From assembly GCA_052055015.1 (NCBI GenBank), contig JBQJIT010000028.1: 50,563 nt of DNA; one strand, written 5' to 3'. The stretch comes from Malassezia furfur. Taxonomy: Eukaryota. A program made the position numbers and the translations under genes. The notes below the pieces were generated by a model, which was not told the origin of the DNA, did not search any database, and saw only the letters and a list, made by a program, of their open reading frames with translations. Shown here one piece after another: positions 123 through 46,487 of the stretch; position 1 is the first letter of the stretch; the number at the start of each line of letters is the position of its first letter.

Positions 123-1140
123 ATGCTTTGGGAGCCAAGGCTTGCGAGCTGGCGTTCTGGTGTGCGCCTTGCGCGCATGCGCCTCGATACCCCGCACCTA
201 GGACCGCACGTATCGCACAGATTTGCGTCGAGCGAGACCGATTCCAATCAGGACCGGGCAAAGGGCGCGAGAACGACGGAGCGCGATGCTTCTTCGACAG
301 CGATCGAACCCAAAGCCAACCAGCCCGCTGAACCATCCTTTACCACATCGACGTCGAAACGCGCTGCCGAAACAGACAAGCTACCGCTGCCTTATCTTTC
401 GCGACCGCTTGGCGTGAGTGGGCGCCCCACGAGCGAGACGCCGACTTGGTTGGAGCGACACCCTGAAAGGTTCGACCGCGAGGTGCGGCTCGAGAAGCGC
501 AAGCAGATCGTCCAGGAGGCGACGCGTGGCTACTTCCACGACTTTCACGAGATGCGCTCGCACGGGGGCAAGACCTGGCGGAGCCCGAATACCATGATCC
601 GGCACGATGTACGTACGATGCTTGTGTGCTTACTTCCAGAAAGCGCTCTTTTTCCCCGATGTGATGGGCACCTGCCTAGCCGATCGGAGCAAGAAGCATA
701 CTGCGGATATGCTGTTTGGCAAAGTGTCGGTGGTCGCCATCATGACCTCGAAAGTGTCGGAAGAACATACTCGGAGTTTCTACCAGGCGACGCTCGACCG
801 GTTCGGCGACGACCCGAACTTCCAGCTCGTGCAAATCAACCTACAGGAGAACAAACTAAAAGCCTACCTCATCACGCTCTTCCTGTCGACGCTGCGTGCA
901 CAAATCCCCGAGAAACTTCATGCGACGTACCTGTTGAGCCAGCAGAGCATGAATGATGTGCGCCACGACCTCGGGCTTGACAACAAGCATGTGGGCTATA
1001 CGTATCTTGTGGGCCCCGATGGCAAGATCCGATGGGCAGGCAGTGCGTTTGCCGAGCCGGACGAGTCCAAGGCGCTGGTGGCCTGTACCGCCGTGCTGCT
1101 CGAGCGCCTGGCCAGCGGCGCCGGCCAGCGTGCCACGTGA
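123..1140 (+). CDS. ATP10: Mitochondrial ATPase assembly factor ATP10 (2 exons; intron 609-639)
   Basis: ORF 84..956 (LPYLSRPLGV...RGYFHDF...GGKTWRSPNTMIRHD) joins ORF 607..1140 (KALFFPD...QLVQINLQENKLKAYL...NKHVGYTYLVGPDGKIRWAGSA) via the 31-nt intron GTACGT...CTTAC.TTCCAG. Start taken at first ATG, 123. Confidence 0.88.
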
Positions 1141-1179
1141 CGTAGACAAAAAAAGTAGGTTGCCTCGTTGCTTCACGGC

Positions 1180-4100
1180 ATGGAGCGTGTGCAGTACTCG
1201 CTGGAGCGCTCGCTCCCTCAGCTGAGGCTGCTCGATGAGCAAAAGCTCCTGTCCAAGGACGAGTTACGCTCCATCACGAGCCAGCGGCAGGCGTTCGAGG
1301 CGCGGCTGATTCGGCGCAAGGCCGACAAGGCAGACTTTGAGCAGTACCTCGCGCTCGAGCACGACCTCAACAGCCTCGTCCAGCTGCGTGCACGCACGCG
1401 CGTGCGCGAAGCGAGCAAGTCAGCACAGAAGGATGATCCCGAGTACAAGAAGCAGCTGCTGCCGCGCAACTTCTTCGCGAAGCAGGCCGCGTCGTACTCG
1501 GCGGTGTGCATCGGCATCTTTGAGCGCATGGTGCGCAAATTCCGGTACGACATCGATGCCTGGGAGCAGTACATCGCATGGGCACGCAGCCGCAAGATGC
1601 GCGTAGTCGCGGGCCGTGTGTATGCGCGCGCACTGTCGCTGCATCCTTCGCACGTGCCGCTGTGGATCTCAGCGGCGGACCACGAGCTGAACGGCAACGC
1701 GGATACCACGGCGGCGCGTGCGCTGCTGCAGCGCGGGATGCGGATGAACCAACTGGTCGATGAAGATGCCCAGCTCGCGCGCGACGCGCAAGAATACCCC
1801 CCTGCCAAGCTGCACAAGGCCCGGCACGGCACGGCGCGCGCCGCGCGCGATGCTGGCGCGCTGCGCTGGGTGCTGACTGACTACGAAAAGGACGTTCTGC
1901 GGCTCTGGGTCGAGTACTTCCGCATGGAGCTCGTCTTTGTCGAGCGGCTCCGGCGGCGGTGGCGCGTGCTGGGCCTCGACAGCGGCGCGGAAGCCACTGC
2001 GTCGCTGTCAACCGATGATGCGTTTGCGTCGGCGCGCGCTACGGCGCACACGGTCGCGCCGGAAGCGCGGGGCGCGGACGCGAGCGACGACGACGACGAC
2101 GAGGCGGTCATCGCAGCCGAGGCCGAGGTCGACGACCAGGTGCCGCATGCGGCACCTGACGAGGAAGACGCGGCGCCGACGGGCACCCGCACGACGCCGC
2201 GCGCGGGCATTGCCATCCCTCCCGGACACGCTCAGATCATGAGCGGCGCGATTCCGCTCGTGCTGCTCACCAACGCACAAAAGTCGCTCCCCGCGAGTGT
2301 CCAGCTGTATTTGTACACGACACTGCTTCAGGTGCTGGCCGCCTTCCCCTTTTTCGACTCGGTGGTGGTGCGTGAGTATGGCGAGGTGCTGTCCCTGCGC
2401 ACTTCGGACGCGCCACTTGGCTCTGGCGACCAGTTGCGCCGGCGGCTCGTCGAGGGCGTGCTGCGCTCGGTGCACACGCTCAGTGACACGGCATGGTCCG
2501 GGGCCGGGCAGCTCGCTGACGCCGTGCTGCATGCCGTGCACCCGCTGCTACACCCCTGGTCACACGGCGTGCACGCCGACATGGAGTGCACGGCGATACC
2601 CGCGTCCGTCGCCAGCGAAGAACTTGAGCAGAACGGTTTGCTGCACGGCGCGAGCCGCCTGCACCCCACCTTCGTGGCCGCACTCGACACGCTGTATGCA
2701 CTCGCCGAGATCCCTCCGTCGCTGCGCGTAGCGGACGCCGGGGCGGGCGTGCACGACCCTTGGAGCATCTGCCGCCCGGTGCTGTTTGTGTTGCAGGTTG
2801 TCTCGCTTCGCCTGGTGGAGCGCACGGCAGAGGCCGACGGCGCCGCCTCGCCCAGCGCATCGTCCGAAGACGACGGACGAATTGCGTGGCAGCCGACGCC
2901 GTACCTCGCGATGCTGTCGCAGAGCGGTGACCTGCCCGTGGTCATCCGCACGCTGACGACCGCCTTCCGCAAGCGGCTTACGGCGTCGGACGCGCCCCTT
3001 GCGCTGGCGTTCCTCGCAACGCTGCGCTTCTTGGCGAACCCGACGCGTGCGGGCATCGAAGAGAGCCATCTGTGCAAGTACCTTGCACGTGCGGAGGAAA
3101 AACTGCTCGCGACGCTCCTGCACGATGGGCCGCACCTCGACCTTGCCTGGCTCGCGATTGAGCAGCTTGTGCGTCGCTTTGCAGCACTACGTGCTGACGA
3201 TGCGGACGACGCCACGCTCACTGCGCTGTTTGCCGACGCACACCGCCTCGTCGAGACCGACGCGCTGCACCCCGGCGCATGGGCAATGTACGAGCGGATC
3301 GGCACGTGCGTCGCGGCACGCCGCCTGCCGGACCAGGATGCGGCGGCGCCATTTGCGTTCCCATCGACCGTGGACATGTCGGACGCGGGCGCGGCGCGCG
3401 CCGCATGGCTCAGCATGCTGCAGGCTTGTACCACTCCCGAAAATATCGCGCAGGATACCTCGGCGCCGGTGTGGGGCTCGCTGTTGCTCTACCTCGGATG
3501 CACGCGTACAGAGCTGCCTGACGACGCGGCGCTGCTCGCGCCGCACCCGGCACGTATTGCGCTGTGGCGCGACTTTGTGGCCTGGGCGCAGCACGGGATG
3601 CGGCCGGCGCCCGAAACGCCGTCCAAGCAGGCGCGCAAGGCCGCCCGCTGGGCATGGTCGACGTGGGAACGCGCTGTGTCGCGCACCGGCGCGCTGCTGG
3701 CCTCGTCGCAGCTCGTGGGTACCGCACGTGTGCACGCCCAGGCGCTGCACGATGCGGTGGTGGAGGACGTGTACGTCGCGGTGAGTGCGCCTGGGGAGGA
3801 TGAAGCGGACGTCGCAGAGAGCGAGCGCCGGCGTGGGTTGCAGCCCGACGATGCGCTTGCGTGGCTCCTGCAGCACAGTTCTGCGAGCGTCGCGTGCTGG
3901 CTCGCGCTCGCGCACCGCGAGGCGGCGTGGAGCGAGGCCGCCCCGGACGCGGCGCGCGCGGCGTCGGCGGCGCGCGCTGTGCGCCTGTATGAACGTGCGG
4001 TCGCGCAGGCTGAGCGCATGGACGCGGCCGGCGTCGTGGACGTATGGGCCGCGTACCTTGCCTACCTGGTGCACACGCAGCGCGACATGCGCACTGCGCT

Positions 4101-4200: not shown

Positions 4201-4279
4201 GCCTCCACCTGCTGATACCACGTGGCGAACGCGCGCGCGCGCGACGCGGTGCGCGGCGCGCGGTTAAAGTCTGCGCACC

Positions 4280-5806: not shown

Positions 5807-5814
5807 GGCGTGCC

Positions 5815-9645: not shown

Positions 9646-11453
9646 CTACGTACGCACCGGCTCGACCGCCGTGCTCTGCCGCACGGGCAGGCCGTGCTGC
9701 GCCAGTGCTTCCTTCACTTCGCCGATCGACACCTCGCGCCGGTGGAAGATGCCCGCAGCGAGCGCTGCTTCGATCGACGCGCCGCCCGTGGCGTCGCGCG
9801 GCGCAAACACCTCGGTAAAGTGCGCGGGCTTGCCTGCACCGCTGCTCGCGATCACTGAGATGTCCACGGCGCCGCGCACAAGGTCGATCAACTGCGTGTC
9901 GAAGCCCGCGTTGCTTCCGTCGCGGTCGATGCTGTTGATCAGCAGTTCGCCGGCACCGAGGCGCTCGACGCCGCGTGCAAGTTGCACCACGTCCATGTCG
10001 CGCATCTCGCGCCCGCCCTTGATGGTGCACGCGTACCACCACTGGGCAGGCTGTCCCTCGCGCCCCGCACGCTCGTCGGGGCCGCGCACCAGCGATGCGG
10101 CGTGCGCGGGGGGCACCAAGTTGCCCTCGTCGACGTACACGCGCTTGGGGTCGATCGACACGACCACCGCCTGCGAGCCGTACATGTGCGAGATCTGCTC
10201 GATGCCCGTGTCATTGGTCAGCGCGGCGTCCGGCGCCGCGCCGGGGTCGGCGCCCGCGCCGAGCGCCGCACACCGCTCCAAAAGGCGCTCGACGGCCGAC
10301 ACCGCCTCGCTGCCGATGCTCACCTTGTCGGCGCCCGCGCGGAAGTAGGCGTGTGCGACGTCAAGCGCAGGGTGGAAGGTCCCGTCGGGGTCCGTAAAGT
10401 CGCGAATCCCGCCGCCGATCGTGAGCGGCACGAAGATGGTCGCTGCCGCGACGCGGAGCAGCGCAAGCATCGGCTGGTCGCCAAGCGCCCAGTTGCGGAA
10501 CGAGGTGATGTTGAGGAAGGCCACCTCGTCCGCACCCTCTGCGTAGTAGCGCTGCGCCAGCTCCACAGGCTTGCCCATGTTGCGCACTTCGCCGCCCGTG
10601 TCACCGCTGCGCTCGCGCACGTCGTAACTCTCGCCCTTGGTCACCACCAGATCGCCCTGGTCGTTGGAACGCACATCAAGGCATGCCACAATGCGCCGCG
10701 TCGGCAGCGCATACGCACGGTGCGGCACAAACGTGCGCGGCACACTCGCCAGCGGCTCCGTCTGCCGCAGCCAGCCATCGAGCACCGCCAGGCCGGCCGC
10801 GCCGCTCTTTTCGGGGTGGAACTGCGTGGCAAAGACATTGTGGTGCTGCACCACCGATACATACGACTCGTCACCGTACTGTGTCGTGCCGAGCGTCCAG
10901 GGCGCCAGCTCGGGCGTGTAGGCGACGCGGTACGAGTGCACAAAGTAGTACCATTCGTCCTTCTTTAGACCAAACGCGCGCGCCGCCGCGTCGTCTCCCT
11001 CGGGCGCCTGCACCAGGCTCCAGCCAATGTGCGGCACGGCCTTTTTGTGTGTGTGCGTCGCGTCGTACTGCGCAAAGCGCCCGACACGCGCCGGCACAAT
11101 GCCAAGGCCCGCGACGCCGGGCGACTCATCCGAGCCCTCAAACAGCGCCTGCATTCCGACACAGATGCCCATATACGGCCTCCCACTTGCGATGTAGGCC
11201 CGCAGTGGCTCAAGGTAGCCCTCTCGCGCGAGCGCGTTCATCGCCGTGCCAAACGCACCGACGCCCGGAAAGAGCAGCTTCTGCAGGGTGAGTGCTTCTG
11301 TACCGCACGTACGTCGGCTTTGTCGATGTCAGATGGGTCGCGCACCCACTCGAAGTGGTGCCCGAGCCTCTCTAGGCTGTTCGCCAGGCTCTGGATGTCT
11401 GCGTGAGTGGCGTACGACCTACTTCCAGCGCCATAGTCGAGCAGGTAGAGCAT
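9646..11453 (-). CDS. HIS7: Imidazole glycerol phosphate synthase HisHF (3 exons; introns 11399-11422 and 11281-11312)
   Basis: Spliced N-terminus MLYLLDYGAGNIQSL...KLLFPGVGAFG; GICVGMQ and TQFHPEKSG (glutaminase); RIVACLDVR, GADEVAFLNIT, NSIDRDG (cyclase). Confidence 0.95.
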
Positions 11454-14921: not shown

Positions 14922-15520
14922 ATGGCCCCTGACGAGGTTCCTGGTCGGCCGCGTCCGGGCCCACCGCCACCTAGGCCTCCATTTAGCGCGCCTGCAGATG
15001 TGAGATACGACGTTCCACCACCGTGGTCGGGCGTGGGCCAAGAACCGCGGAGTGCACCTGTCCGACCTCCACCTCCTTCAGCTGGCCCTCCGCGCCCGAG
15101 GAACAGCCGCTGGGATGCACCACCATCCAGCGTACCCAATGCCCCGCCACTTGGAAGTGTGGATGGACATTCCCGTCCCATTTCATTGATACCCCGTGCA
15201 CCTCCTCGTGCACCCATTGCCCCTGAACTGATGAAAGAGGTACGTTTACCATACCGGTGCTGACGCAGATTGCGGATATTCGGGCTCAGCGAATGCAGAC
15301 TATTCGGTCTCACTATCTTGTGACGAGCAAGTCGACGTCGGGGAGTGCCACGATTCCACCGCATTTCTCCCTCCAGAGCTCGCTGATGGAGTTGAGCGAC
15401 GCTGAGCTAGAATCGAGCGCGATGCACGCACGAACCGAGTTTCTTGAAGCGTCACTGGTCCGCACTCAGGAAGATGCCTTTGCCTACTCGGCAGTGACAA
15501 GTGCTACACAGCATGCCTAA
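14922..15520 (+). CDS. Small hypothetical protein with Pro-rich N-terminus and helical C-terminus (intron 15240-15268)
   Basis: ORFs 14880..15263 and 15257..15520 join in frame through a 29-nt GTACGT...CTGAC.GCAG intron. Confidence 0.65.
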
Positions 15521-16499: not shown

Positions 16500-17596
16500 G
16501 TGTCATTAGACCTCGTGGACAGTACTGACACACCCTTACAGTCAGCGCATACGCGATCAACCGTGTTGGACCCGCTCCAAGGAACTAATGCGTATGAGGC
16601 AACTACTGCCTACGATTCTGAAAGCTTAAAAGCGTTGACAAGCTTGGACCGCTTGGTCGCACCCGCGGCCAACCAAGCTCCGTTTCCGTATACCGCCGAT
16701 GCGAATCTGTTGCAAGATCGCTTCATGCACGGCATGGCGTGGACACCTATGGGTATGGGTGGACCCACTCCGTATGCCGTAGCTGGCGATGGCGCGATGG
16801 CGCCGAATATGTCCGTGTCTCCGCTGCTCAGCAATGGGGGCATGTCGTATGGAGCGTCGGTGATGCCAACGGCACCGATGGCTCTCCGCCAGCCGTATGC
16901 GATGGGCTATCCTATACCCATTGCGCCGGTACCCACGCGTATGCCTGGCGTGCCGGATGAAGAGACGCGATTCCCAGCGTCGAACACATTTGTCGATTCG
17001 GCTTCGAACCCGACCTCGGATGCGTCGCGCGCGTCGCTATTGCAAGACTCTCCTTTTCAGCCTGATGACAGCGAGACTATCACGCAGTCTACGTATTCGA
17101 CGCCACAGGCGCTGTGCGACACTAGTGCGGCCTATCCTAGCGCCGTCGGTCTGCGAGGGGCGGCCATGCAGAGCCGGTCGCGCTCCCCGTCTCCCAAGTG
17201 GGCGCCGTTGTCATCACGATGGGATGACTACGGCAGTGCTTCCCTCATGGATCTTTCCAAGCGTGGCGATACTTCTGCCACATCCAAGTCGCGACCGTTT
17301 GTGTGTTCCTATTGTTCGCGGGCGTTCGCTCGCAAGCATGACCTGGAGCGCCATGCGCGCGTTCACGTATGTTCGCCTATGCATACTGACCCCACAGTCG
17401 GGCGATCGTCCATACGTTTGTGCCGAGTGCAAAAAAGGCTTTCCGCGCAGCGATGCGCTGCGGCGCCATATGTATGTCCCTGACTCCCGATGCGTGTACT
17501 AATGGCAGGCGCGTTGAGCACGGAACTCCAAGCCCCGGTGGTCGCGGGACGACGCCTGGTGAGCCGGAGTCTACGCGGCACGACGAAGAGGGATGA
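16500..17596 (+). CDS. C2H2 zinc-finger transcription factor with two fingers (introns 17367-17397 and 17472-17508); 5' end uncertain
   Basis: Spliced product RPFVCSYCSRAFARKHDLERHARVH-SGDRPYVCAECKKGFPRSDALRRHMRVEH. First in-frame ATG is 16725; an upstream exon (ATG 16430) is possible but unresolved. Confidence 0.82.
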
Positions 17597-18950: not shown

Positions 18951-21284
18951 ATGGCCGACGAGTCGGTGTCGAGCTTCGCGGCGTTCGCGGACGCGTACCG
19001 CGCTGCCAAGTCGCTCGACGTGGCGCAGCAGCTCGATCCACAGTCAGGCACGGCACTCGTCTTTGCTGATATCTGTGCGGATCGTGCACGGCTCGCCCAG
19101 GACGGCGTGCCGCCTGCCGCGCCGCTCGACGACTTGCACGCTGAAGAATGGGACACGGAGCAGCATACCTGGCGACTAATCCAGCTACTCTTCTCGTATG
19201 TCCTCCTCACTTACACAGTGAGCGCCTCGAGGCGCGCCCCGAGCGCAGCGATCCCGAGCACGCGTACGAGACGCCGCTCGCGACCGTGCAGCGGATTCTC
19301 GCGTCCGACTCGGAGCTGGCCGAGCTTAAAATCGTGCGCGAGTGGCTCCAAGATTTGCTGCCCGTCGTGCACACGGTCGAGGTGCGCAAGGGGTACCTGT
19401 CGTTTACGAAAAATGCGCTGCGCGCCAACCGTACGCAGCTGCCATCCGGTGGCCGCCGAGGAAACCAGCGGCTCGTGGACCAGCTTGACCCCGACGCGGC
19501 GGTACGTGGGCCTGGAGTGCTGGATGTCGAGGATGTGAACTACGAAAAGGCGCTGCTGCGCACGCTCTTTGAGTACGTGCGTGCCGGTGAGCTCGACAAG
19601 GCACTGCACCTCTGCACGCAGACCAGCCAGCCATGGCGTGCGGCGTCGCTGCGCGGCGCACTTTTCTACCATGACCACGGTCTATCTGACGTGGGCGGTG
19701 CCGAGGCCATAGGTGACCGCCTGCGCAGTATCTGGCGTCGCGTCGCCGAGAAGGCCGCCAACAGTGTACGTGCGAAGATAACTAACGCAGCTTGCAATCG
19801 ATCCGTACGAGCGGGCGCTGTATGGCGCGCTGTGCGGCCACCTGTCCTCGGTGCTTGCCGTAAGCGAGACGTGGGAAGAGCAGCTCTGGGGCTACATTAA
19901 TGCGCGCTTCGAGCAGCGTCTGCAGCACGAGCTCGATGCGGCGTTGCCCAGCGACGCTGTACGCGCGCCGACGAGCGGCTCCGCAGAGGCATTTGAGGAC
20001 CTTGAGTCGATCTTTGAGCAGCTCGTGCAGTCCAAGACGCCGGGTGTCGAGCACGCTGCGATGGATCCGTACCACATCACGCAGCGCGCCGTGATCACCA
20101 ACCAGCTGCCCGATCTGATCGCGCGTGTGAATGCGCGCCTGCCCGAGCTTGAGGCGCTGCGTCCCGAGGTGTATGCGCGGTTCGTGCGCTTCTTTGCGCA
20201 CCTTGTGCTGTACTGTCACCTGATTCACATCCCTCTGCCGATCACGCTGCGCGCGCCGATTCTGAACGCGTACGTGGGTGTGCTGCAGCGTGCGAACCAG
20301 AGCAGCGAGCTGGTTGCGCTGTATGCCAGCAGTCTTGACACGGCCGACGCGCACGTCGTGTTTGCCGAATTCTTGTGCAGCCTGCCGACCGACGCGGCGC
20401 TCGAGGAGCGGCGGCGCGCGCTGCTTCAGTCGCAGCCGCACAACCTCGATCCGGCGATTGTTGCGCGGTGTACGGTGGACATGGTGTTTGGTGCGCTGCT
20501 GCCTGAGCTGGCCGAGAGCGGCCCGACGAGCGACTGGGACGCGTCGCTCACCGACACGGAGCGCCGCCTGATCTACGCTGTGGACTGGCTCACGTTCTTT
20601 GAGGCGACGTACGCGGATGCCGTCGTGCAGACCAATCGGCTGATGCGCGTGTTTATGGTGACCGGTCGGCTGCATGCAGCACACAGCCTGTTGCGCCGCC
20701 TGCCGCCCGAGCTGTTTGCCCAACTCGACCAGATCGAGGTGCCTGCCGACCAGGTGCTCGAGGTGGATCACTGGCGCAGCTACTTTGACGTCCTTGACAA
20801 GAACGTCGCGGTGCGCGGGCTGTGGAGCGACTACTGCCACGCCGATTCGCGCACCGAGCAGCATGAGGGGCTGCAAGCACTCGCAAGCGCCGTCGAGGCC
20901 GCGCGCCTCGCGAACCTCGAGCTGCTCGAGCTCGGTTGGCTGCGCCTCGATGTCGAGCCAGCGTCTGAGGAGGAGGCGCAGCGGCTGCACGAGCTCGTGG
21001 TGATCCGCCGGCGGTACATCCCCGAGATCGTGCTGAGCCTGCACCTGATGCTTGTGGACACGAGCCAGGCGATTTCTGCCAATCTGGCGCATGCACTGCA
21101 GCTGCCGAACTTGATTGCGGACGAGCGGTTGCGCCTCTACGCCGAGTTTGCGACACCCGAACCAACCGCCGACGGTTCGCACAACCTGCTGCGTGCCTAT
21201 CTCGAGCACGTGCGCAGCGCTGCGCTTCTGGCCATGGACCGGCACGAGGATGTGCTGGGGTGCAACGAGAGCGTCGTCGTATAG
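18951..21284 (+). CDS. NUP84: Nucleoporin Nup84/Nup107 (introns 19196-19218 and 19766-19790)
   Basis: WDTEQHTWRLI; ELKIVREWLQ; LDPDAAVR; LFEYVRAG...QPWRAASLRG; DPYERALYGALCG...TWEEQLW; IRRRYIPEIVLSLH. Both introns restore frame. Confidence 0.92.
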
Positions 21285-21291
21285 TCTAGTC

Positions 21292-22630
21292 CTACAGATA
21301 AAAGTTGCGGCGCGACGCGCTCATCTTGGGCTTCCACTTGAACTCCACACCGTCGTCCGGCGCGGTGTGCTCCGTGTCGTCCTCGAGCTGCGCGGGCGCC
21401 TCGTCGGTCTCGAGGTCGTCCACAAACCGGCCGTTCCACGCACCGGCGCCTTTCGGCAGGCCGCGTGCCATCGACACGAGCTTCAACGTGAAGCGTGGCC
21501 CAATCTCCTGCAATGCCGCCTTGTCCGTCGACCGGAACTCGTAGCGGTGCCGACGGAAAAAGACGTAGTCACGCTGGTTGTGTGCCGTGACCACCTGGCG
21601 GCCCTCGAGCTCAGGCACCTTGGGGAACAGGTGCTGCAGCATCCGCCCGACACGGTGGCCCAGCGCCGTGGTAAAGTTGTTCAAGATCAGCTCGGGCGAG
21701 TGGCCCGTCGAGCGCGCGTGCCCGTAGATCTCCTTGCCGTACGACAGCGATGTCAGCCGGAACAACGCCGTGGGGCCCAGCGGCAGCTGCACGAGCGTCA
21801 GCGTGCACGGCTTCTTGTTCGACTCGCCAATCACAATCACCGCGTCGTAGCGACGCGCACGCGCCCACGAGCAAATCTTACCGAGGCCCGCGCCTTTGGC
21901 CTTGGCTCGGGGACGGTACTCGGCGCCAGAAAAGACGCTGAGCAACTCTTTGACAAAATTCCGCGTCTCTTCGGCGGGGTGGCTGCGCGCGTTTGCCGAG
22001 GCAAGATGCGGCGACGTCGAATTCGACGGCAGCGAGGTCGTGATGAGAATCGCAGGCGGCGCCGTAGGGTCGGCGTCCACGTCGTACTTGGCCTGTTGCG
22101 GATCGACGAGGTCGGGCATGGGCTCGGCGTCCATGTCCATCGGCGGTGCCTCGGACGGCTCACTGCCTTCCTCGTCCTCGTCCTCCTCATCCTCTTCGTC
22201 GCTCTCCTCGTCGCTGCCCGAGTCGCTGCCCGAGTCGCTGCCGCTGGCTTCGCTGCTTGGTGTCTCTGTCCGCGCCTGCGCGGCGGGCTTTTCGACCTGC
22301 TCTGCCATCCATGTGGGCAACTCGTGCGTGTTGGGAGCATTCAGCACCGTTGGATTGTACGTGCGCGAGTTCTCAATGGTGCGCGACTTGTTTTTCGCGA
22401 GCCGTTCCTGGGTAAGTGCGTTTGCGTACCTTGCGACGGAGCTTGCCTTCCGTCGACGTGCGCTCCTCTTTCGCGGTTTTCAGGCGGCGCTGCAGTTTGA
22501 GCCGCGCCTTTTCCTTGCGGTACTTTTGGTACATATCCTGCCGCTTGTGCTTGTTCCCGATGTGCGACACATTGCCGGTGCGGCGCAGCGGCACATCGTC
22601 CCCTTCCCCCGACGCCTGAGCGCCGCGCAT
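21292..22630 (-). CDS. RPF1: Brix-domain ribosome biogenesis protein Rpf1 (intron 22408-22429)
   Basis: IGNKHKRQ...ERLAKNKSRTIEN after splicing; PELILNNFTTALG, HNQRDYVFFRRHRY, LQEIGPRFTLKL, RRNFYL. Confidence 0.92.
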
Positions 22631-22722: not shown

Positions 22723-23012
22723 ATGTCTGTTTTCCTGACTGCCTCGCGTGCCTCGCTGCGTGCTACCCGCGCTCCGGCCATGCAGCTGGCGCGTCGCAAC
22801 GCGCACTTTGAGAACACGGCGGAGACTGTACGTGGATTCTTGGCTGACCACAGTCGCTCCCCTTCCCGCAGGGCCGCAAGCACGCCAAGGGCCTCGCTGT
22901 GGGCGTCGCTGCCTTCTTCGCCACGGGTCTCGGTGTTCCTTTCCTGATCACCTACTACCAGCTGTACGTATACTCTGTGTGCTCCCTACTCACACCCAGT
23001 CACAAGCCTTGA
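22723..23012 (+). CDS. COX8: Cytochrome c oxidase subunit VIIc (yeast Cox8) precursor (introns 22828-22853 and 22964-22999)
   Basis: Spliced product MSVFLTASRASLRATRAPAMQLARRNAHFENTAETSLPFPQGRKHAKGLAVGVAAFFATGLGVPFLITYYQLHKP: presequence, LPF motif and one TM helix ending in YQL. Confidence 0.8.
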
Positions 23013-23054: not shown

Positions 23055-25531
23055 TTACATCAGAAGCACCACAAAGTTGCTCGGGAACGTGTTGGCGCCT
23101 GGCACACGCCGCGCTTCGTCGAGCAGCTCGCCCTGCCACCATCCATCCGGTTCCGTATGCGTCACGGCGATAATGTCGCCGGCCGTGAAACTAAATTCTT
23201 CCGGCATCGACGCAGCGTAGTCGTACAGCGCCTTGACGTAGAACAGGATGGGCTCGCCCGCCTCGCTGTACTGCCCAGTGGGCGGGCGCGGCCCCGGCGC
23301 GGCCGGCGGCGCATTCGACCCAGCGGCGGGCGCGTAGTTCTCCGCCATTTGGTCCTGCGTCACGACACCCTGCGCGTTCAGCGCAATGCCGCCCGGCGTC
23401 GTGCTGCGTGCGGGACCCGCGGCGGGCGCGGCTTCGTAATTGACGTGCGACGACAGCCGCCGCTCCGAGGGGAAGGACTGGCCGTACTTGGTCAACACCT
23501 GCTCCACGGGGATCGGCGACTCGCCACGCGCCGGGGGGTTCATGAACGCCGCGGCGGGTGACAGCGGCCGTTGCTGTAGACGCGGGTCGACACTGCGTGC
23601 CTCGGCGGGCGGCGGAGCAGCGGCTGGCTGAGCCACAGGCTGGCTCGCCAGCGCGTGCATCGGCGCACCTGGCATGGCGCCAGGCATTGTCGCGGGGGCC
23701 GCGGCAGGGGGTGCTTGGGCGGGCGCCGCTTGAGCTGGCGTCGTATTCGGCTGTACCATGCTCGTCGGCCGGCTGTTGGGTGCAGGCGACTTGCGGGACT
23801 GGTGCATACGCAGGTTCGCCAGCGCTTTGGCGATCGGGTCCGACTCGTCGATGTCGGCCGCCGCAGCGCTGGGCCCAGCACCGCTGGGCCCAGCACTGCT
23901 TGCATAGCTCGTGCGGGAGTGCGTTTCGGCGGCAGGCACGTACGTAGGCTGGTTGGGTGCCGGTTGGCTAGGCGCGGGCTGGCTCGGCTGGTACGCCGGC
24001 TGACTCGGCTGGTACGCTGGCTGGCTCGACGGCTGGTACGCTGGTTGGCTCGACGGCTGGTACGCTGGCTGGCTCGGCGGCTGGTACGCTGGCTGGCTCG
24101 GCGGCTGGTACGCGGGCTGGCTCGGCGGCTGGTACGCGGGCTGGCCTGGGACTGCCTGGCTCGGGGATGGCTGGCTCGCGGCCGGTTCCGGACGCGACTG
24201 ACTGCCCATACGCGCGATCGGCGGCGCGCCCGGTGAAAACATGCTGTTGCGGTTTGACGTCGAGGGCGGCGGTGTGCGTGCCACCGGCTCAAGCGACTGC
24301 CGCGGTGGCGGCGTGCGAGCGGTACCACGGCTTCCGCTACGACCGAGATCCAGGTTGGGGTTCGGCGTGAGCAGGGTGTTGGGGGTGAATCCGACGTTGG
24401 GCGTAGCGTTCGCGGCTGTCGACGGCGTTGCGACCGACGGCGGGATGGGCGTGCCCGTGCTCAACGGCGGCATAATGTCCGACGCACGCGTCGACAACCG
24501 GTGGAATTGGGCAGCAGACTGGTTGGGGTCGGCGGGCGGTGCCTGCCCCTGGGCGTAGTTGATGTACTCGGGCGCGGCCGGAATGTTGGCACCCGTGCCG
24601 AACTCGCGCACAAACATCTCGACGTCGCGTGCCGCATCGCATTGCTCGAGCGATACACGCACACGCTCGCACGCCTCGTCGTCCGTCACACAGACGCTAG
24701 AGATTGCGTTCTCAAAGCTCCACAGGTTAGTTTTGAGGAACTCTTGGCGCTCCTCCTCCACGTCCTGACACACGTCCAAAAAGCTCTTCCACTCCGAATT
24801 CCATTTGTACGTGGTGTCCTGCAGCGCACGCACATAGCTCTGGTAGTCCTTGTCTGTGTGAGCGACAGTAGCGACGCACCGTTTGTCCCGACGGTCGCCT
24901 GGACACGTTCGAGCTTGTTCATGAGCTTGTCGAGCTCCTTGCCCTGCACCAAGTTGCTCTGGGCAGTGTATGCGTTGATTTTGGTGCAGTCTTGCTCGTA
25001 CTTTTCGCGCGCGCGCTGCACGTACTGCATCTGCATCTGTTTGTGCTTGTACAGCTTCGTCGTAGCCACCTGGGCAGGACGGCGCACATTTTCGGTGCGC
25101 GCCATCAAGTCCGACAGGGGGTTCTCGATCTCCTTGCGGATGGAGTGCACTAGCTGTGCGTGCGATCGCGCGATGGCCTCTGTCTCTCCGCGCACCTTTT
25201 CGAGCGCTTGGCGCATCGGCCTGCGTCAGTAAAGCGCGCATCACCTACCCTGTCTCATGCCGGCCCAGTGCCGTCTTGGAAAGTTTGCTTAGCCGCTTGG
25301 AGTACTCCTGCTCAATGTCGGCACTGTGTGAGTCTCGCGTGCACGCACCGCTCCTGGTAAAACGAGCGCAGATCTTCGAGGGTGCGCGTCGTATTTTTGA
25401 TGAAGCTCTGCATGACATGGTAGCCAGCATCGTTCTCGCCCTACGGTAAGCACACCACGTACCCAAAAAGCATTGCAAAATGCAAACGGGTCCGCGTCGG
25501 CGTCCCCGTAGCCCGTGTTGCTCTGCATCAT
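23055..25531 (-). CDS. HOF1: F-BAR/SH3 cytokinesis protein, Hof1/Cdc15-like (introns 25441-25462, 25324-25348, 25221-25248, 24854-24879)
   Basis: Spliced FCH start FCNAFWGENDAGYHVM...FYQERADIEQEYSKRLSKL; coiled coil; Pro-rich linker; C-terminal SH3 (YVKALYDY...PDGWWQGEL...FPSNFV). Confidence 0.88.
23980..24143 (-). repeat. Coding minisatellite of about 7 units (24/21 nt) encoding QPAYQPPS
   Basis: Tandem GGCTGGTACGC(T/G)GGCTGGCTCG(G/A)C units on the + strand; 7 PAYQP copies in the translation. Confidence 0.9.
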
Positions 25532-28438: not shown

Positions 28439-29450
28439 ATGCTCGAAGCGAAGATTGAACAAGCCGTGGTGGTGCGTAGACCCAACAACTGACTCAGTTC
28501 AAACGTGTCCTGGATGGTACGCACCATTGCCCTCAGCCCGACTAACGCAGCCATCAAGGACCTCGTTGAGCATGCCAACTTTGATTGCAACGAAGAGGGT
28601 CTTGTACGTTGCAATCGCTCACGCAGCACCTGCAAGCCATGGACAGCTCGCACGTTGCCCTCTCTGCCGTGCAGTTGCGTGCTGACGGCTTTGAAGAGTA
28701 TCGGTGCGACCGTCCTATGAGCATCGGCGTCGCCATCACGAGCTTGACCAAGGTCATGCGAAGCGCGCAGAACAACGATATCCTCAACATGCGCAAGGGT
28801 GACAATGCCGACAGCTTGCACCTCGTGTTTGAGGGGACCAGTACGTTTACCCACTGACCCAGGCTCGGACCGCATCGGCGAGTTCGATCTCAAGCTCATG
28901 GATATCGACACCGAGCATCTCGGTATTCCCGACACGGAGTACGACGCGGTGGTCAAGCTCTCGTCGAACGAGTTCGCGCGCATCTGCCGCGACCTGTCAA
29001 ATGTGGGCGAGAGCGTCAAGATTACCATCACCAAAGAGGGTGTCACGTTCTCGACCGAGGGCGAGATCGGCGATGCTCGGATGACGCTCAAGCAGGGCTC
29101 AGGCTCGGCCGCGCGTCTCGATGACGATGACGACGCTGGACTTGACGAAGATGATGCGGACAAGCCCACGAAGAAGAGGAGGACCGATGCAGGTGCCAGC
29201 AGCTCGACGGGCGGCGTCGTCCCCGTTGAGATCCAGCTGGAAAAGGCCGTGGCGCTCACGTTCAGCGTGCAATACCTGGTGAACTTCACCAAGGCTGCTC
29301 CCCTGTCTTCGGCTGTGACGCTTCACATGGCAGACAAGGTCCCGCTTCTGGTCGAGTTTGCGTTTGAGAACGGCCATGTGCGGTACTACCTGGCACCCAA
29401 GCTTGCCGAGGTACGCAATGCGCGCGCTAACCCAGACCGACGACGATTAA
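28439..29450 (+). CDS. POL30: Proliferating cell nuclear antigen (6 exons; introns 28472-28497, 28517-28550, 28604-28626, 28841-28862, 29411-29435)
   Basis: Spliced [47 protein letters not shown]...YRCDR...FDLKLMDIDTEHLGIPDTEY...FARICRDL...YYLAPKLAETDDD. Confidence 0.96.
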
Positions 29451-29725: not shown

Positions 29726-30727
29726 TCACTCAATAAAATTCCCATAGTCCCGGTTAAGAGTGTCAAGCTTCAATGTTGGTGCCTCGATCAAGGTCGTCTG
29801 GCTGTGATTCATCCAATCTTCGCCGTCATTGTAGAGAGAAACATATGCATCTTCGCGGTCGGGATTGTACTTCCAAGAGAAATCTTTAGGCAGGTATTGC
29901 ATCGGGTTCACCACGTTCATAATCGCAACAGCGACAAATACAAATGCGCCATCAAACACGTAAAGGCACCATTCAGTATTATTAATCACTCCGTTCCAAC
30001 CAACACCCATTTCGATTACACGGAAAATAGACCGCCGAATAATGAGCTGACTGGAGAAGAACACGGCCCACAGCAGTACTCGGTACCTGTCGTAATGGGG
30101 CGGGGGGTTTTTCCGCACACGGTGCCAGAACGAAAGGAAAACAAAGTCAAACAAGAGATAGCCAGCCAGCTGTACCGAAACACCGGCCACAACGATGTGG
30201 GAGCCACGTTGGGAGTCCTAACGTTAGCCAAAAAAAAGGTACTCACCTCTGCATTGTTGGCGGAGCCTGCCGAGCCACCTCCAATGCCCTGGACCACAAG
30301 CGATACAAGATCGATAGTGACAAAGATCGGGACAAGCATGACGGGACGAAGGACCGAGTACTTGCGCGGAAACATGGTCGCAATGCGGCCGACCACCGTG
30401 AAATGGATCTAGATGAGTGATTGTCGATGTACTGCTGCAAAGAGACAGGGGGTAATGATAAGAAGACACTCCATAGCCACAAACGTGTTGCGGATATACG
30501 GATTAATGTGTCCTTGAATGCGCCTGTGTTAGTTGGGTAACATACAGAGCATAGCCTGCCAATTCTGCGAGGGCGCCAATGAGAAAGACAGACATCCACC
30601 ATTGCCGGTAGTACAGTAGCTGTACAAAATGGGCCGCCGAAGTCAGGCTAAAGGCTACAACCAGGACGATGGCCGCAGCCAAGTTGGGAATGTATCCATA
30701 CAAGGAGAAATCGGCGCGATCTTGCAT
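29726..30727 (-). CDS. RTA1/Rsb1-like multi-TM membrane protein (introns 30524-30545, 30409-30432, 30218-30246)
   Basis: YGYIPNLAAAI; ELAGYALR; IFVTIDLVSLVVQGIGGG; RSIFRVIEM...EWCLYVFDG. Three introns restore a continuous frame. Confidence 0.87.
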
Positions 30728-37261: not shown

Positions 37262-38711
37262 ATGGCTTCTCAATCAGGCCAGACTTTGGGTGCCCAGGAC
37301 AATGCGGTGCTGAGCCAGATCTTGGCTGGCATCACGGATCTTCGTCGCGATGTACGTTTTGTTTGTTGGGGCTAATAAACAGGTGCATCGTGTGACGGAA
37401 CGGCTTGACATGCTCGAGATGCAGCAGCCGCCGACGCCGACGCTGCCTATGTTCTCGCCGAGCATTTCGCCGTCGAAGCGCAATACGTACTTCGCGCACC
37501 AGACATCCCTCAACAGCTGGCATCCGGAGCGGAATCGTCCCGCACCGCCATCTTCCACCCCCGCAGCGCAGATTGCGCCGCCCTCCCCGGTGTCGCTAAA
37601 GGCCACGGATCCGAACCTTGGGCTCTGGGCCGTTGTACCAGCCGGTGGTGCGGGCACGCGTCTCTGGCCCCTGAGTCGTGAGAGCTGCCCCAAGTTTTTG
37701 CTCGACCTCACCGGTCGCGGTCGCACCCTGATCCAAAACACGTGGGACCGCCTGTTGCCGCTTTCGGGTGTGGAGCGTTTTATGGTGGTTACGGGCAATG
37801 CACACGTCGATGCCGTCTCGGAACAGCTCCCGCAGCTTGTCCCCGGCAACGTGTTTGCGGAGCCCTCGCCGAAAGAGTCGATGGCTGCCATCGGTCTGGC
37901 CGCGGCGGTGCTCATGCGCCGTGACCCCAACGCGGTGCTCGGCTCGTTCGCGGCGGACCACATCGTGTCCGGCCGTGATGCGTTTGAGTCTGCAGTGCGG
38001 GAGGCCGTGGCCGTCGCCAAGGAAGGCTTCCTCGTGACGATTGGCATTGCGCCTTCGTACCCCTCCACTGGGTTTGGCTACATCAAGCTTGGCGAGAGTT
38101 TGGAACTGAAGGATGCACCCAACGCGCACAAAGTGCTCGAGTTCAAGGAAAAGCCCGATGCACGCACCGCCAGCGCCTACCTGAGTACCGGTGAGTACCG
38201 CTGGAACGGTGGTATGTTTGTGGTCAAGGCCAAAACGCTCATGTCGCTCCTCGAGGCTAACGTGCCGGAGCTCTACGCGGGTCTCAACACGATTGCCGAT
38301 GCTTGGGATACGCCGAGCCGCCAGCTGGTGCTGAACGAACAGTGGCCGCAGCTGCCCAAAATCGCCATCGATCACGCGGTAGCTGAACCAGCATCGCGGG
38401 TTGGCAAGGTCGCTGTGGTCCCCGCAACCTTCGGTTGGGACGATGTCGGTGACTTTGCCAGTCTCTCGGACTTGTTGCCCGCCGAGAAGAACGAGGCGCG
38501 CGTGCTCGGCGACCCATCGCTGGTGATCACTGAGGGCCAGGTCGGTGGCATTGTGGTGCCAGCATCCGGCCGCCAGATCGCGTGCCTAGGTATGGACGAC
38601 GTCGTGGTCGTCGACACACCCGATGCGTTACTCATCACGACGCGTGCGCGCAGCCAGGATGTGAAAAAGATCGTGGCCAAGTGCAAAAAAGCACACCCAG
38701 AGCTTTGTTAG
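37262..38711 (+). CDS. Mannose-1-phosphate guanylyltransferase, bacterial ManC type (intron 37352-37382)
   Basis: VVPAGGAGTRLWPLSR..PKFLLDL; AEPSPKES; FAADH; STGFGYI; FKEKPD; WNGGMF; WDDVGDF; VVVDTPDALL. A 90-nt first exon is in frame. Confidence 0.9.
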
Positions 38712-38778
38712 AATGGATAGCGTTTAGGGGTGTCGTGCTATCTATATTTGGAAAATACAGACGTTAGGTATCAAACTG

Positions 38779-39058
38779 TCATCCTTGCCGCTTTGGTTAG
38801 TCGTATCGCACATACCTGCTTGTGCTTCGGGTTCTTGTTGCAGATCACGTATAGTCGCCCCTTGCGGCGGACAATGGCGCAGTGGTTGCACTTCCTCTTG
38901 ACCGACGCGCGTACCTTCATCCCGCGTGTCATTTGAGGAACCACGGGCTGCGGCGTGAGAATACGTGGCATCATCGCCGGTGAAGGCATCGCCAGCGCCG
39001 GGAAGGGCCGCGCGGCGACTACTTGCCGGATGAGCGGAACACTGGCGCGGAGAAGCAT
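38779..39058 (-). CDS. RTC6: Mitochondrial ribosomal protein bL36m (intron 38791-38815)
   Basis: Presequence followed by [40 protein letters not shown] stop; splicing restores the canonical KQRQG end. Confidence 0.93.
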
Positions 39059-39114
39059 CGTGGTCGCTCCCAAGAAGACGATCGTCACGTGCCTGGAAAA
39101 GTTGCTCTCTGGCC

Positions 39115-43200: not shown

Positions 43201-43257
43201 TACTAGCAGCTCTATGATGCGAATACCGTAGCAACATACAAATGCAGAAAAATGCTA

Positions 43258-44979
43258 TTACAAAGACGTACGGGCCGCTGTCTCTACACGCAGTGTGAGC
43301 ATCAGCAGACCCGAGATCATGAACAGCGTGGCGCCGACGTAGATCGGCACCGACGCCTGCGTCTTGGTGGCATCGGCCGGCACACCATAAATTTTGATAA
43401 TCGGGGCAAGAATACCAAACATGCGGTTGAGGCTTGAGGCAATTCCATCCGCCGTGCCACGCATCGGCGCAGGGAAGGATTCAGGCGTGTAGCAGTACAA
43501 CACACCGTACATAATGTTTTGCGTGAAGGCCGTCACACAACTGAAAGCAAGGGTACCGTCACTGGTCGACATTGCCGTGAAGCCATACAAGAAGATACCA
43601 CTCAGCAGGGTACCGATGGCCATCGCACCACGGCGACCGCTGCGGGGCAGGTTGACCATCCACGTGGCGAGCAGACTCCCGGGAATACCACACACCGAAA
43701 TGATCACATAGTTGCGGTAAGTCTCCGACATGGAGTTGGTGGTGACGTCGCTTCCACCACCTGACTTTTCGAGGTACAAAAGAATGAACGAGTTGAAGAG
43801 CGGGTAGGCCAGACCGATAAAGGCCCACAGAATCCAAATCACCACCGTAGTGTAACCGAGCTCAAACGTAGAAAACAGCGGCTTGATGTGCGTGATCGAC
43901 TTCCGCATGTCGATCGAACGCGCATTGAATGCAAACATGCGTACGTTGTGGATCGTCTTGCCTACTAGGTACTTGGGATGCTCGTGAATTAGCTCCTCCA
44001 CCGACGGGTCGTCGTCCATCGCATCATCTTGACCAGCAGCCGAACGAAGGATTTCGACCGTAAGCATATCATCGGGCAGTGGCTTGCCGCACATAGCAGC
44101 GAAACGCTTCATCGCCTCGACGGCTTCCTCATCGCGACCCTTCGAGAGCAGGAACTTGGGGCTCTCAGGGATCTTGAACACCACAAATCGCAGGAAGAAG
44201 CACGCGAGCGTGAATGCACCAATCGTAAAGTTGAAGTAGCGCCAGCCAACATTGTCGGTAACCCAGCCGTTGCCGTTCTTCACGAAGCACTGGGCATCAA
44301 CACAGTGCCAGCGAGCAATAAAGCCCCAGCCGATCAGCGACGCCATCAACTGACCCAGAGACCAGAAAACCGAAAGCAGCGTCAAAAGATATTGGCTGTT
44401 TCCCGGCAGGAACTCGAGGAAAAGCATGCCGTCCACAGGCAAACTACCGCCCAAGCCAAAGCCCAAAGCGGCCAAGAGACCTCCGAGAGCCGTAAAGTTG
44501 GTTGGACCACCCGCAGCAATGCCAAACACACCAGCGATAAAAAGCGTAGCGTTGAACGAAAGACGACGTCCCACAATGTCGGCTGCAATACCCCAGAATG
44601 CAGCCCCGCAAATGAGACCGGCATACAGGGCCACCGTCATGAACTCGGGGTGCTCTTCGTTGAATTCGTTGGCAACTTGCGGCAGGATGATCGCGACACC
44701 CTGCAGCCATGCGTTATCAATGAGCCATCCCACACCCGAAACACAGAGCAAACCCCACTGCCACCAGGTCATGCCAATGTGCTCGTTGATAATCTTGTTG
44801 AAGATGTACACCTTGCGGCCATACACCTCGTCAATAGCTGCAGCCTCGACGTGGCTGGAGCGGATTAGCATTTCATCATGCTCGCGGATGTCTTCCTTGA
44901 GTTCCTCGGCTTTCTTGATCTCGGCGGGAGCCATGTGTTGCTCCACGTCCGTCGGCATACTCTGGTTCGTCTCCGTCAT
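43258..44979 (-). CDS. MFS transporter (SV2/sugar-porter-like, about 12 TM)
   Basis: ADIVGRRLSFN (motif A), GLGGSLPVDGMLFLEFLP, PESPKFL, YTPESFPAPMRGTADG. ATG at 44979. Confidence 0.9.
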   Translation of the reverse strand: MTETNQSMPTDVEQHMAPAEIKKAEELKEDIREHDEMLIRSSHVEAAAIDEVYGRKVYIFNKIINEHIGMTWWQWGLLCVSGVGWLIDNAWLQGVAIILPQVANEFNEEHPEFMTVALYAGLICGAAFWGIAADIVGRRLSFNATLFIAGVFGIAAGGPTNFTALGGLLAALGFGLGGSLPVDGMLFLEFLPGNSQYLLTLLSVFWSLGQLMASLIGWGFIARWHCVDAQCFVKNGNGWVTDNVGWRYFNFTIGAFTLACFFLRFVVFKIPESPKFLLSKGRDEEAVEAMKRFAAMCGKPLPDDMLTVEILRSAAGQDDAMDDDPSVEELIHEHPKYLVGKTIHNVRMFAFNARSIDMRKSITHIKPLFSTFELGYTTVVIWILWAFIGLAYPLFNSFILLYLEKSGGGSDVTTNSMSETYRNYVIISVCGIPGSLLATWMVNLPRSGRRGAMAIGTLLSGIFLYGFTAMSTSDGTLAFSCVTAFTQNIMYGVLYCYTPESFPAPMRGTADGIASSLNRMFGILAPIIKIYGVPADATKTQASVPIYVGATLFMISGLLMLTLRVETAARTSL

Positions 44980-45261
44980 TGTAGCAAGCTTGTATAGATT
45001 AGGGACGAAAACCGGAGAAGAGCGATTTTTTTTCCTTCCAGACAAGGGGTATAAAATTAAGTAGTGGGGAAGGAAGTGACGCCGCGCTTTATAACGGAGG
45101 GGATCCCCGGCTCAAACGAGTTACTATTTGGTAGCAGTCTAGATCGGCGATTTGTGCCAAGGTAAAAAAAGCTTGGTAATCCAAATGCGCAGCTACTTGA
45201 CTAAAAGGAGATGGACACCATTATGTATTCAGGTGTCCAAAATAAAAAAGTACAAAAAGTG

Positions 45262-45372
45262 TGACAAGAGTGGGATTCGAACCCACGCCTCAGGGAGACT
45301 GCGATTTTGTTGTCAAGGTATCCCTTTGAAGGAGCCTGAACACAGCGCCTTAGACCACTCGGCCATCTTGCC
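45262..45372 (-). tRNA. tRNA-Leu(CAG) with 30-nt intron (45305-45334)
   Basis: Minus strand reads GGCAAGATGGCCGAGTGGTCTAAGGCG-CTGTG-TT-CAG-G[intron]T-CGCAG, variable arm, GTGGGTTCGAATCCCAC-TCTTGTCA; oligo-T downstream. Confidence 0.92.
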
Positions 45373-45487
45373 TTGAGTTGAAAGTGAGCACCGACACTGA
45401 CAATATAATCTCATGGAGAAGACTCTAGTTTAGCAGGAAGTAATGTATGCAATGTCGACGCCCTGAGACATGCGTATATACAGTTGA

Positions 45488-46487
45488 TTAAACACCTTGG
45501 TTCCCCTGAAAGTCCTGACATCCAGTAGGAAGGTGAAAAGCTATCGTGGACTTGTTCGCGTTCCGGATTATACGTCGCCTTCGGAATGCATACTGCTCGT
45601 CAAACAAGATGGCGTCCGCGAATGGGTCAGTCGGCTCGTAAAAGTCGAGACACGGCTGTTGGGGGGTATTTAAGGGGAACATGTAATAAGAATGCGAACA
45701 CGAGTCATCCTGTTCTCCCCTTCCTTCACTTGAGATGTCCATTGGTATAACAGAGTTCGTCTCTGACGAATAAAAAACATCTTGCCCTCTCAAGGGCTCA
45801 CACCTCGATGTTGTATTTTTCAAATAGGGTGCCATTTGAGCCTTAGTCTTTGCGCTTCCAAGCAAGGAAGGTTTTATAGGACGAGAGTTGGACGGATAGG
45901 CTGTTTTGTCATTTGGTGTTTGCTCGCATGGAGGCAAATTTTCTTTGAACTCGTTTGCTGCAAGAGGTGCAAGTTGTAAAGTGCGCGGAGACGTCTGCAT
46001 AGATTTCCAACGGCCACGTTGCTGGTGTAAAACGCGTTCATGGTCGAGAGAAGCCATCGCGATGCTGGTGCGAGAGTTACGGTTGGCCGATGAAGTTTTG
46101 TATGCAGACACGGGAGACTGTGGATATTCCGAACGAGCAAAAACTAATACGTTAGTTCGATTGCATACCTTCGGAACAAGCCGCCGAAGGGCTTGGAAAC
46201 TTAATAGAATAAGAAAGCGGTTTCTGCAACAGATTCTCACTGCCCTCTAGTTCTTTGGCGGTATGTCCGAGCTCCCTAATATGTGGACGCGGAAAGAGCA
46301 CATTATATCGTTTTTGTGCACCATAGATACGGCGTGGGGGTATATCGTTCAGCAAGTTTCCAAGCATGTGCTCCAGCTCCTGTTCATCCGCACATCCTGT
46401 CGCACGAGAAGATGCCTCTCGCGTTGTTGGACGTGAGGCTTCTCTAGTTCGATTCCGAAGCATTCCTGGCATCGGATGCCGTGTCAT
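45488..46487 (-). CDS. Orphan hypothetical protein of about 324 aa (intron 46144-46168), lower GC
   Basis: ORFs 46152..46532 and 45488..46240 join in frame via GTATGC...CTAAC.GTATTAG (25 nt). No recognisable domain. Confidence 0.55.

Follow-up and report, generated by a model that had tools for sequence, protein, structure and literature searches.

Ultra-short introns with a predicted 21-nucleotide floor in a Malassezia furfur genome

Introduction

It is an open question how the spliceosome is accommodated on an intron with only about 15 nucleotides (nt) from donor to branch. In human extract, a donor-to-branch distance of about 50 nt is required, 35 nt abolishes assembly, and short introns need Smu1/RED (PMC6692369). 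The question is raised by a 50,563-nt contig of the basidiomycete Malassezia furfur (JBQJIT010000028.1, here C28; the whole stretch is called the window), on which an earlier note had drawn twenty-six spliceosomal introns of 22–37 nt in thirteen genes.

Here, we assess these introns, compare them between two related copies of the locus, predict intron lengths and branch geometry in a larger sample of the genome, and survey the splicing machinery. We tentatively propose that most introns of M. furfur are spliced at a hard lower limit of 21 nt, made up of a lariat loop of 16 nt and 5 nt up to the AG, by a fungal spliceosome that is largely complete and acts on donors mostly carrying C at position +4, and that assembly bypasses the human limit of about 50 nt, perhaps by way of a U1 small nuclear ribonucleoprotein (snRNP) that is altered or unusual. 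In this full form the proposal is plausible rather than probable.

Twenty-six introns with major-class anatomy

A motif scan found all twenty-six introns at exactly the lengths given in the earlier note (22–37 nt, mean 27.0, median 25.5). Every one has GT-AG ends, and the signals are as the note described them: the donor is GT(A/G)NG in 25/26 and GTACAT in the remaining one, and a CTNA(C/T) motif lies 5–8 nt from the 3' end in 26/26. Minor-class (U12-type) introns are marked by an RTATCCT donor and a TCCTTAAC branch, and neither RTATCCT nor TCCTTAAC occurs in any of the twenty-six. Short introns of the Ire1-spliced HAC1/XBP1 type or the tRNA type have ends other than GT-AG and are cut in stem-loops; the GT-AG ends and branch motifs present throughout fit neither type. 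These features support a reading of the segments as putative canonical major-class (U2-type) spliceosomal introns, and we consider it very probable that they are spliced as drawn. They are listed below with what bears on each junction, where homeolog refers to comparison with the second copy of the locus.

609..639, plus strand: ATP10 intron, 31 nt; Pfam positions 6–92 then 93–254 over the junction; homeolog intron 37 nt, ends kept
11399..11422, minus strand: HIS7 intron 1, 24 nt (divisible by three, no stop); spliced frame open; homeolog ends kept
11281..11312, minus strand: HIS7 intron 2, 32 nt; open frame, Pfam, homeolog
15240..15268, plus strand: intron of a small open reading frame without Pfam match, 29 nt; homeolog 24 nt, a 5-nt intron deletion between gap-free flanks
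17367..17397, plus strand: C2H2 zinc-finger intron 1, 31 nt; two fingers joined; homeolog 29 nt
17472..17508, plus strand: C2H2 zinc-finger intron 2, 37 nt; Pfam finger ends at the donor (19/23); homeolog ends kept
19196..19218, plus strand: NUP84 intron 1, 23 nt; open frame, homeolog
19766..19790, plus strand: NUP84 intron 2, 25 nt; Pfam 32–218 then 222–701; homeolog
22408..22429, minus strand: RPF1 (Brix) intron, 22 nt; open frame, homeolog
22828..22853, plus strand: COX8/COX7C intron 1, 26 nt; open frame, Pfam, homeolog
22964..22999, plus strand: COX8/COX7C intron 2, 36 nt (divisible by three, no stop); Pfam ends at the donor (61/64); homeolog middle strongly diverged
25441..25462, minus strand: HOF1-like (FCH-SH3) intron 1, 22 nt; open frame, homeolog
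25324..25348, minus strand: HOF1-like intron 2, 25 nt; FCH positions 1–25 then 27–47; homeolog
25221..25248, minus strand: HOF1-like intron 3, 28 nt; open frame, homeolog
24854..24879, minus strand: HOF1-like intron 4, 26 nt; open frame, homeolog
28472..28497, plus strand: PCNA intron 1, 26 nt; after splicing, the protein aligns colinearly with orthologs from Malassezia and Ustilaginomycotina; homeolog
28517..28550, plus strand: PCNA intron 2, 34 nt, preceded by a 19-nt exon; ortholog alignment, homeolog
28604..28626, plus strand: PCNA intron 3, 23 nt (71 nt in the deposited model); ortholog alignment, homeolog
28841..28862, plus strand: PCNA intron 4, 22 nt (64 nt in the deposited model); ortholog alignment, homeolog
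29411..29435, plus strand: PCNA intron 5, 25 nt; ortholog alignment, homeolog
30524..30545, minus strand: RTA1 intron 1, 22 nt; related copies have a 22-nt intron at the same position
30409..30432, minus strand: RTA1 intron 2, 24 nt, donor GTACAT, in-frame stop at its end; the paralog on contig C92 has a 21-nt GTACGT intron here
30218..30246, minus strand: RTA1 intron 3, 29 nt; Pfam 47–96 then 100–207; paralog intron 26 nt here
37352..37382, plus strand: intron of a ManC-type mannose-1-phosphate guanylyltransferase gene, 31 nt; spliced 472-amino-acid (aa) protein colinear with a 472-aa M. brasiliensis protein; homeolog not found
38791..38815, minus strand: RTC6 (bL36m) intron, 25 nt; exon 1 stops at L36 position 35/38, with three codons and a stop after the intron; homeolog not found
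46144..46168, minus strand: intron of a gene without a recognized family, 25 nt; one homolog spans both flanks, in two frames; homeolog not found

The density of such sites is far from chance. We scored the window with splice matrices learned from 216 introns predicted on other contigs (by a predictor first seeded on the twenty-six, so not fully independent): 23 sites of 21–40 nt reached at least 12, and all 23 are listed introns. At the same threshold the window held one site at 14–20 nt, none at 41–60 nt, three at 61–80 nt and one at 81–100 nt, and 20 composition-matched random sequences yielded 1.0 ± 1.1 sites (maximum 4). The RTA1 introns of 24 and 29 nt and that of the family-less gene fall below 12 and are supported instead by paralogs or homologs. 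An extra 21-nt candidate at 11851–11871 was rejected as coding, since the changes in its homeolog are synonymous and destroy the branch motif. Intron-like segments also lie upstream of RTA1 (30738–30765 and 30852–30883, minus strand) and of the zinc-finger gene (16500–16542, plus strand); they are possibly introns of 5' untranslated regions or missed upstream introns, and none scored 12 in the 21–40 nt scan of the window.

Protein continuity and the deposited gene models

Removing the introns yields a single open frame over every junction in 12 of 13 genes. RTC6, read in the correct frame, encodes bL36 residues 1–35, is interrupted by its intron, and ends in Arg-Gln-Gly-stop, giving 38 residues. 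Pfam profile numbering continues over the junctions in ATP10 (92 to 93), NUP84 (218 to 222), the FCH domain (25 to 27) and RTA1 (96 to 100). The gene names in the earlier note agree with the Pfam matches (ATP10, His7, C2H2 zinc finger, Nup84, Brix, COX7C, FCH and SH3, PCNA, RTA1, ManC and L36), where COX7C is the subunit called COX8 in yeast. HIS7 exon 2 matched yeast His7 residues 17–40 weakly (expectation value 1.3). Spliced ManC, in an alignment of 9 of the 120 listed matches, agrees with the M. brasiliensis protein of 472 aa. The family-less gene (45488–46367, minus strand; probable start 46367, stop 45488) encodes about 284 aa in a stretch of 47–50% GC; its four homologs, at 41–92% identity, have a conserved C-terminal block in common, and one of the four matches both intron flanks, in different frames.

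PCNA allows the drawn introns to be weighed against longer ones. The spliced protein, 293 aa, is gap-free at its five junctions against Malassezia, smut, mucoralean and algal PCNAs (14 of 120 listed matches aligned). A deposited 263-aa M. furfur model has the 25-, 26- and 34-nt introns correct but, next to those of 23 and 22 nt, leaves out 16 and 14 conserved residues; on window coordinates these gaps would equal introns of 71 and 64 nt. Taken at face value, such a model would imply longer introns spliced at neighbouring sites. However, the 16 and 14 residues it deletes are present in the aligned Malassezia, smut and outgroup orthologs, the skipped bases diverge between the two copies of the locus as coding sequence does, and no strong motif set occurs in the window at 41–60 nt. 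We regard longer introns as highly improbable. The earlier note's expectation that standard gene finders mis-model these genes is borne out in PCNA and probably also in an M. vespertilionis ManC model, which starts exactly at the intron.

Conservation between two subgenomes

The window (62% GC) belongs to an assembly of 13.7 Mb in 1856 contigs. For most of window 42–29509 a second copy at 86–88% identity lies on contigs C22, C594 and C35; for 31000–50563 none was found in the genome, a gap that heterozygosity loss or collapse could account for. Over the largest PCNA exon, identity is 100% to a protein labelled M. furfur CBS9595 and 96% to M. obtusa. Described M. furfur hybrids have genomes of about 14 Mb, with parents that differ by about 10% and loss of heterozygosity of about 20% (PMC9040865). 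Most likely, then, this genome is an M. furfur hybrid with two subgenomes about 87% alike.

We compared 31 homeologous intron pairs, comprising 20 of the 26 window introns and 11 predicted on contigs C6 and C7. The GT and AG dinucleotides were changed at 0/124 bases and the branch A in 0/31 pairs, donor positions +3 to +6 at 12/124 and the other branch bases at 21/155, while the linker was changed at 116/330 (35%) with 16 indel bases. Lengths differed in 7 of the 31 pairs, by −5 to +6 nt. In the coding sequence, codon positions 1, 2 and 3 differed at 4.1%, 1.9% and 23.8% of 9888 sites each. This is the pattern expected for putative spliced-out sequence selected only at its signals, and it shows selection on the predicted donor, branch and acceptor between the subgenomes. 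Together with the intron ends, branch motifs and restored frames, the retention of these signals upholds the assignment of the twenty-six as spliceosomal.

The same comparison bears on whether the breaks in reading frame are assembly errors or decayed genes. The assembly is fragmented, and a related RTA1 copy on C35 looks decayed. Against this, the independently assembled second subgenome has the same breaks at 20/20 testable window introns, with GT and AG intact, in housekeeping genes including PCNA and NUP84, and we give artefact or decay almost no credence.

Synteny with C35 is broken at the RTA1 gene (window 29726–30727). At C35 19300–23000, a decayed-looking RTA1 fragment is followed by a paralog and a neighbour resembling those on C92, which suggests rearrangement or misassembly at the RTA1 copies.

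An abrupt floor among predicted introns

To place the window in its genome we ran a small purpose-built gene finder that favoured no intron length (flat prior, minimum 14–16 nt), left linker length unscored and allowed the branch A from position 10. An earlier version had joined genes through long false introns, so penalties were tightened and scores thresholded. The sample was 832 kb of non-redundant sequence from the largest contigs (6% of the genome), with 400 kb held out from training and homeologous duplicates dropped (the first 30 kb of C35 and C7 beyond 31 kb). It gave 671 predictions, of which 557 scored at least 8 and 416 at least 12; the 114 below 8 were excluded.

Among the 416, one is shorter than 21 nt, 48 are 21 nt, 75 are 22 nt, 307 fall at 21–27 nt, 71 at 28–40 nt and 37 above 40 nt. 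Predicted lengths peak at 22 nt, with a median of 24. The earlier note's statement that every intron is tiny holds for the window only, given the 37 longer predictions. The floor at 21 nt is abrupt; the cliff recurs in the held-out 400 kb, and a frame-blind motif count gives 0–9 per length at 14–20 nt, 68 at 21 and 89 at 22. Because scoring was independent of linker length and the branch A was permitted from position 10, the floor was not imposed by the model, although the spacing from branch to AG had been learned from the sequences themselves.

Branch geometry was read from the 457 predictions of at most 45 nt scoring at least 8. The branch A lies at position 16 or beyond in 455/457, the two exceptions being the rejected 11851–11871 segment and an 18-nt candidate. 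Exactly 5 nt follow it in 278/457, and 51 of 52 21-mers are 16+5. The acceptor is CAG in 409/457, and the branch-to-AG spacer is not pyrimidine-rich. Both METTL16 copies, one per subgenome (C507 and C146), contain a 21-nt intron with an in-frame stop. Lengths divisible by three are few in the window (3 of the 26, p 0.02), but avoidance of them as a general feature was rejected, the genome-wide count being 143/457 (p 0.37).

Those lengths bear on whether the introns, though real, are inefficiently spliced and commonly retained, as in microsporidia, whose tiny introns have a median splicing of about 25% (PMC13644364). Stops show a weak excess in introns divisible by three (31/73 versus 48/162 others, first sample), as retention might predict. 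On the other side, lengths divisible by three are not depleted genome-wide, PCNA needs five and U1-70K four tiny introns removed, and 99% of curated M. sympodialis introns have RNA-sequencing (RNA-seq) support, which shows presence, not efficiency (PMC5389616). Common retention seems to us rather unlikely.

Splicing machinery and the donor +4 position

Several parts of the splicing apparatus were found in the genome. A U2 small nuclear RNA (snRNA) gene of 193 nt matches the full Rfam model (124 bits) and carries GTGTAGTA, complementary to the branch; U6 snRNA is present in two copies, each matching its full model with ACAGAGA intact. U1-70K is intact in two copies, one per subgenome, each with four predicted introns of 23–28 nt. 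SNRNP27K, METTL16 (intact twice) and a Snu23-like zinc-finger protein are also encoded. In all, three of four protein families searched were found (METTL16, SNRNP27 and U1-70K). The reduction of the spliceosome raised as a possibility in the earlier note is not borne out for these parts.

U1 snRNA is a different matter. An Rfam model search of the genome, run with no positive control, returned 0 matches. A U1 5'-end pattern had 11, none with an Rfam match and most resembling intron 3' ends or donor complements, and a U1 loop pattern had three unconvincing ones; 41 of 173 U1 candidates were scored. U1 snRNA may be divergent. The RED_N family likewise gave 0 candidates in the genome, again with no positive control.

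The donors add to this. GTACGT accounts for 231/457, and +4 is C in 320, T in 76, G in 41 and A in 20, so that nearly all would mismatch canonical U1 at +4. One could suppose that the spliceosome has been rewired or greatly reduced, for instance by loss of U1 snRNP, and the U1 and RED blanks would also point that way. Yet U1-70K is intact in both subgenomes, the Snu23-like protein, SNRNP27K and METTL16 are present, U2 and U6 match whole models, and fewer than a quarter of the U1 candidates were scored. We judge such a spliceosome unlikely.

SNRNP27K ends in WRQYMNR, the Met of which is the putative equivalent of Met141. High GC content is a candidate, and simple, alternative cause of C at +4. 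Loss of METTL16 or SNRNP27K has been linked to non-A +4 in Saccharomycotina, as A versus U, with no mention of basidiomycetes in the accessible text (PMC10581693). That route was rejected for the M. furfur +4 C donors, both genes being kept. The accessible text of bioRxiv 10.1101/2021.03.19.436190 has no passage on RED or Smu1.

A proposed minimal geometry

We propose that these are ordinary U2-type introns that would have shrunk to near their physical minimum in a compact Malassezia genome. In sequence, each comprises a 6-nt donor (mostly GTACGT), a linker, an (A/G)CTNAC branch and an AG usually 5 nt past the branch A, with no pyrimidine tract. Splicing would follow the standard two-step lariat route, with splice sites paired across the intron and the acceptor fixed by its distance from the strong branch motif. 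The 21-nt floor would then be the sum of two minimum spacings predicted from the DNA, a branch A at position 16 or beyond and 5 nt after it, and the lariat loop would go down to 16 nt. A loop of 16 nt would leave the U6/donor and U2/branch helices only about 5 nt apart and so make their extended human-type forms impossible. Deletion pressure would shrink introns until a steric limit halts it, and the abruptness of the floor suggests such a limit of this spliceosome rather than the tail of a distribution.

Several points weigh against this account, the U1 and RED blanks among them. The genome-wide figures come from our own predictor, seeded on the twenty-six and applied to 6% of the genome on its largest contigs; in the window it recovered 24/26 introns and made 8 extra calls, 3 of them scoring at least 8. 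Longer introns exist, the 37 high-scoring predictions above 40 nt reaching 448 nt. The single high-scoring prediction below 21 nt, an 18-nt in-frame GT-AG segment (L108 1747–1764, contig C1), has a good branch motif and no stop, and is possibly just coding. That the introns are spliced, how efficiently, and where they branch is, for this strain, deduced from DNA.

Other features of the window

The ManC-type gene (37262–38711) is common to basidiomycetes, and proteins of the actinobacterium Kineococcus at about 70% identity are among its top 120 matches, a hint of a possible old transfer from bacteria. Rfam places tRNA genes at 13915–14014 (plus strand, 100 nt) and 45262–45372 (minus strand, 111 nt); the model has 71 positions, and both genes probably contain introns. 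ARAGORN, unlike Rfam, reported no tRNA in the window. The gene at 36021–36845 (plus strand) has no intron and a product of 274 aa whose N-terminus is hydrophobic; part of the gene matches C213 (twice) and C67 at 71–76%. In the HOF1-like protein, about seven QPAYQPPS-like units are repeated in tandem (23960–24150, minus strand).

Discussion

The ultra-short size class is already known for the genus and is not in itself news. Curated M. sympodialis introns (5350) average 30 bp, automated sets giving 50–65 bp (PMC5389616, Table 2); M. restricta introns have a mean of 37.2 and a median of 30 (PMC9241646, Table 1), and "very short" is the term used for the introns of Malassezia in a review (PMC7426719). 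Mean introns of 63 and 397 are given for C. neoformans and S. cerevisiae (PMC8476143). The earlier note's caveat that Malassezia introns were partly known was sound; it overrated the novelty, a 30-bp mean with RNA-seq support having been published (PMC5389616), and the minimum-intron setting of about 15 nt that it proposed had already been used, at 15–20 nt, to annotate M. restricta (PMC6473144). M. furfur shares genus and size class with these species, with a predicted median of 24–25 nt. Their papers give means and medians in the accessible text, and do not describe there the minimum, branch geometry or donor consensus (PMC5389616, PMC9241646, PMC6473144); supplementary Figure S8 of PMC5389616, a plot of the lengths, may already show the floor. 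Among the top-listed results of literature searches, which covered few subscription journals and so do not establish absence, we found no published account of a 21-nt floor, branch geometry or Malassezia spliceosome.

Comparable systems are known from other lineages. Stentor, which keeps all snRNAs, has introns that are likewise GT-AG with a near-fixed branch A (position 10 of 15) and the same 5 nt after it; they differ in being 15–16 nt long, with loops of 10–11 nt and a weak U-rich branch (PMC9505925). In M. furfur, by contrast, the predicted loop measures at least 16 nt, the (A/G)CTNAC branch is strong, the linkers are rich in GC and the length distribution tails off into longer introns. 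Paramecium has tiny GT-AG introns of about 25 nt and is an established alternative model. In Trichomonas type B introns (23–25 nt) the branch motif is nearly fused to the acceptor and a pyrimidine tract is lacking, as here, but that intron-poor protist has a few dozen introns, whereas this basidiomycete is predicted to have hundreds per Mb, down to 21 nt (PMC12316389). The same 2025 paper ranks 23 nt among the shortest known introns and cites 18-nt introns in Bigelowiella (PMC12316389). Human short introns, too, are limited by a minimum donor-to-branch distance, about 50 nt there (PMC6692369) and about 15 nt as predicted here.

Microsporidia, dicyemids and myxozoans resemble Malassezia in being host-associated, with compacted genomes and introns below 30 nt (PMC13644364); unlike them, Malassezia is culturable and editable (bioRxiv 10.1101/638429). 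That 2026 study of ultra-short introns names ciliates, microsporidia and dicyemids as the exceptions, and Malassezia is nowhere mentioned in its accessible text (PMC13644364).

For annotation, gene finders with a larger minimum intron drop conserved residues, as shown for one M. furfur PCNA and as is likely for the ManC model, in a common skin commensal and opportunistic pathogen. For splicing, Malassezia offers hundreds of such introns per Mb, a sharp floor, hybrid genomes that expose the essential bases, and gene editing. Worth following up is the sharp 21-nt floor in an editable fungus whose spliceosome looks conventional. If our proposal is true, M. furfur would be an editable basidiomycete in which to dissect spliceosome assembly below the human limit, from a lineage missing from the recent list of ultra-short-intron organisms.

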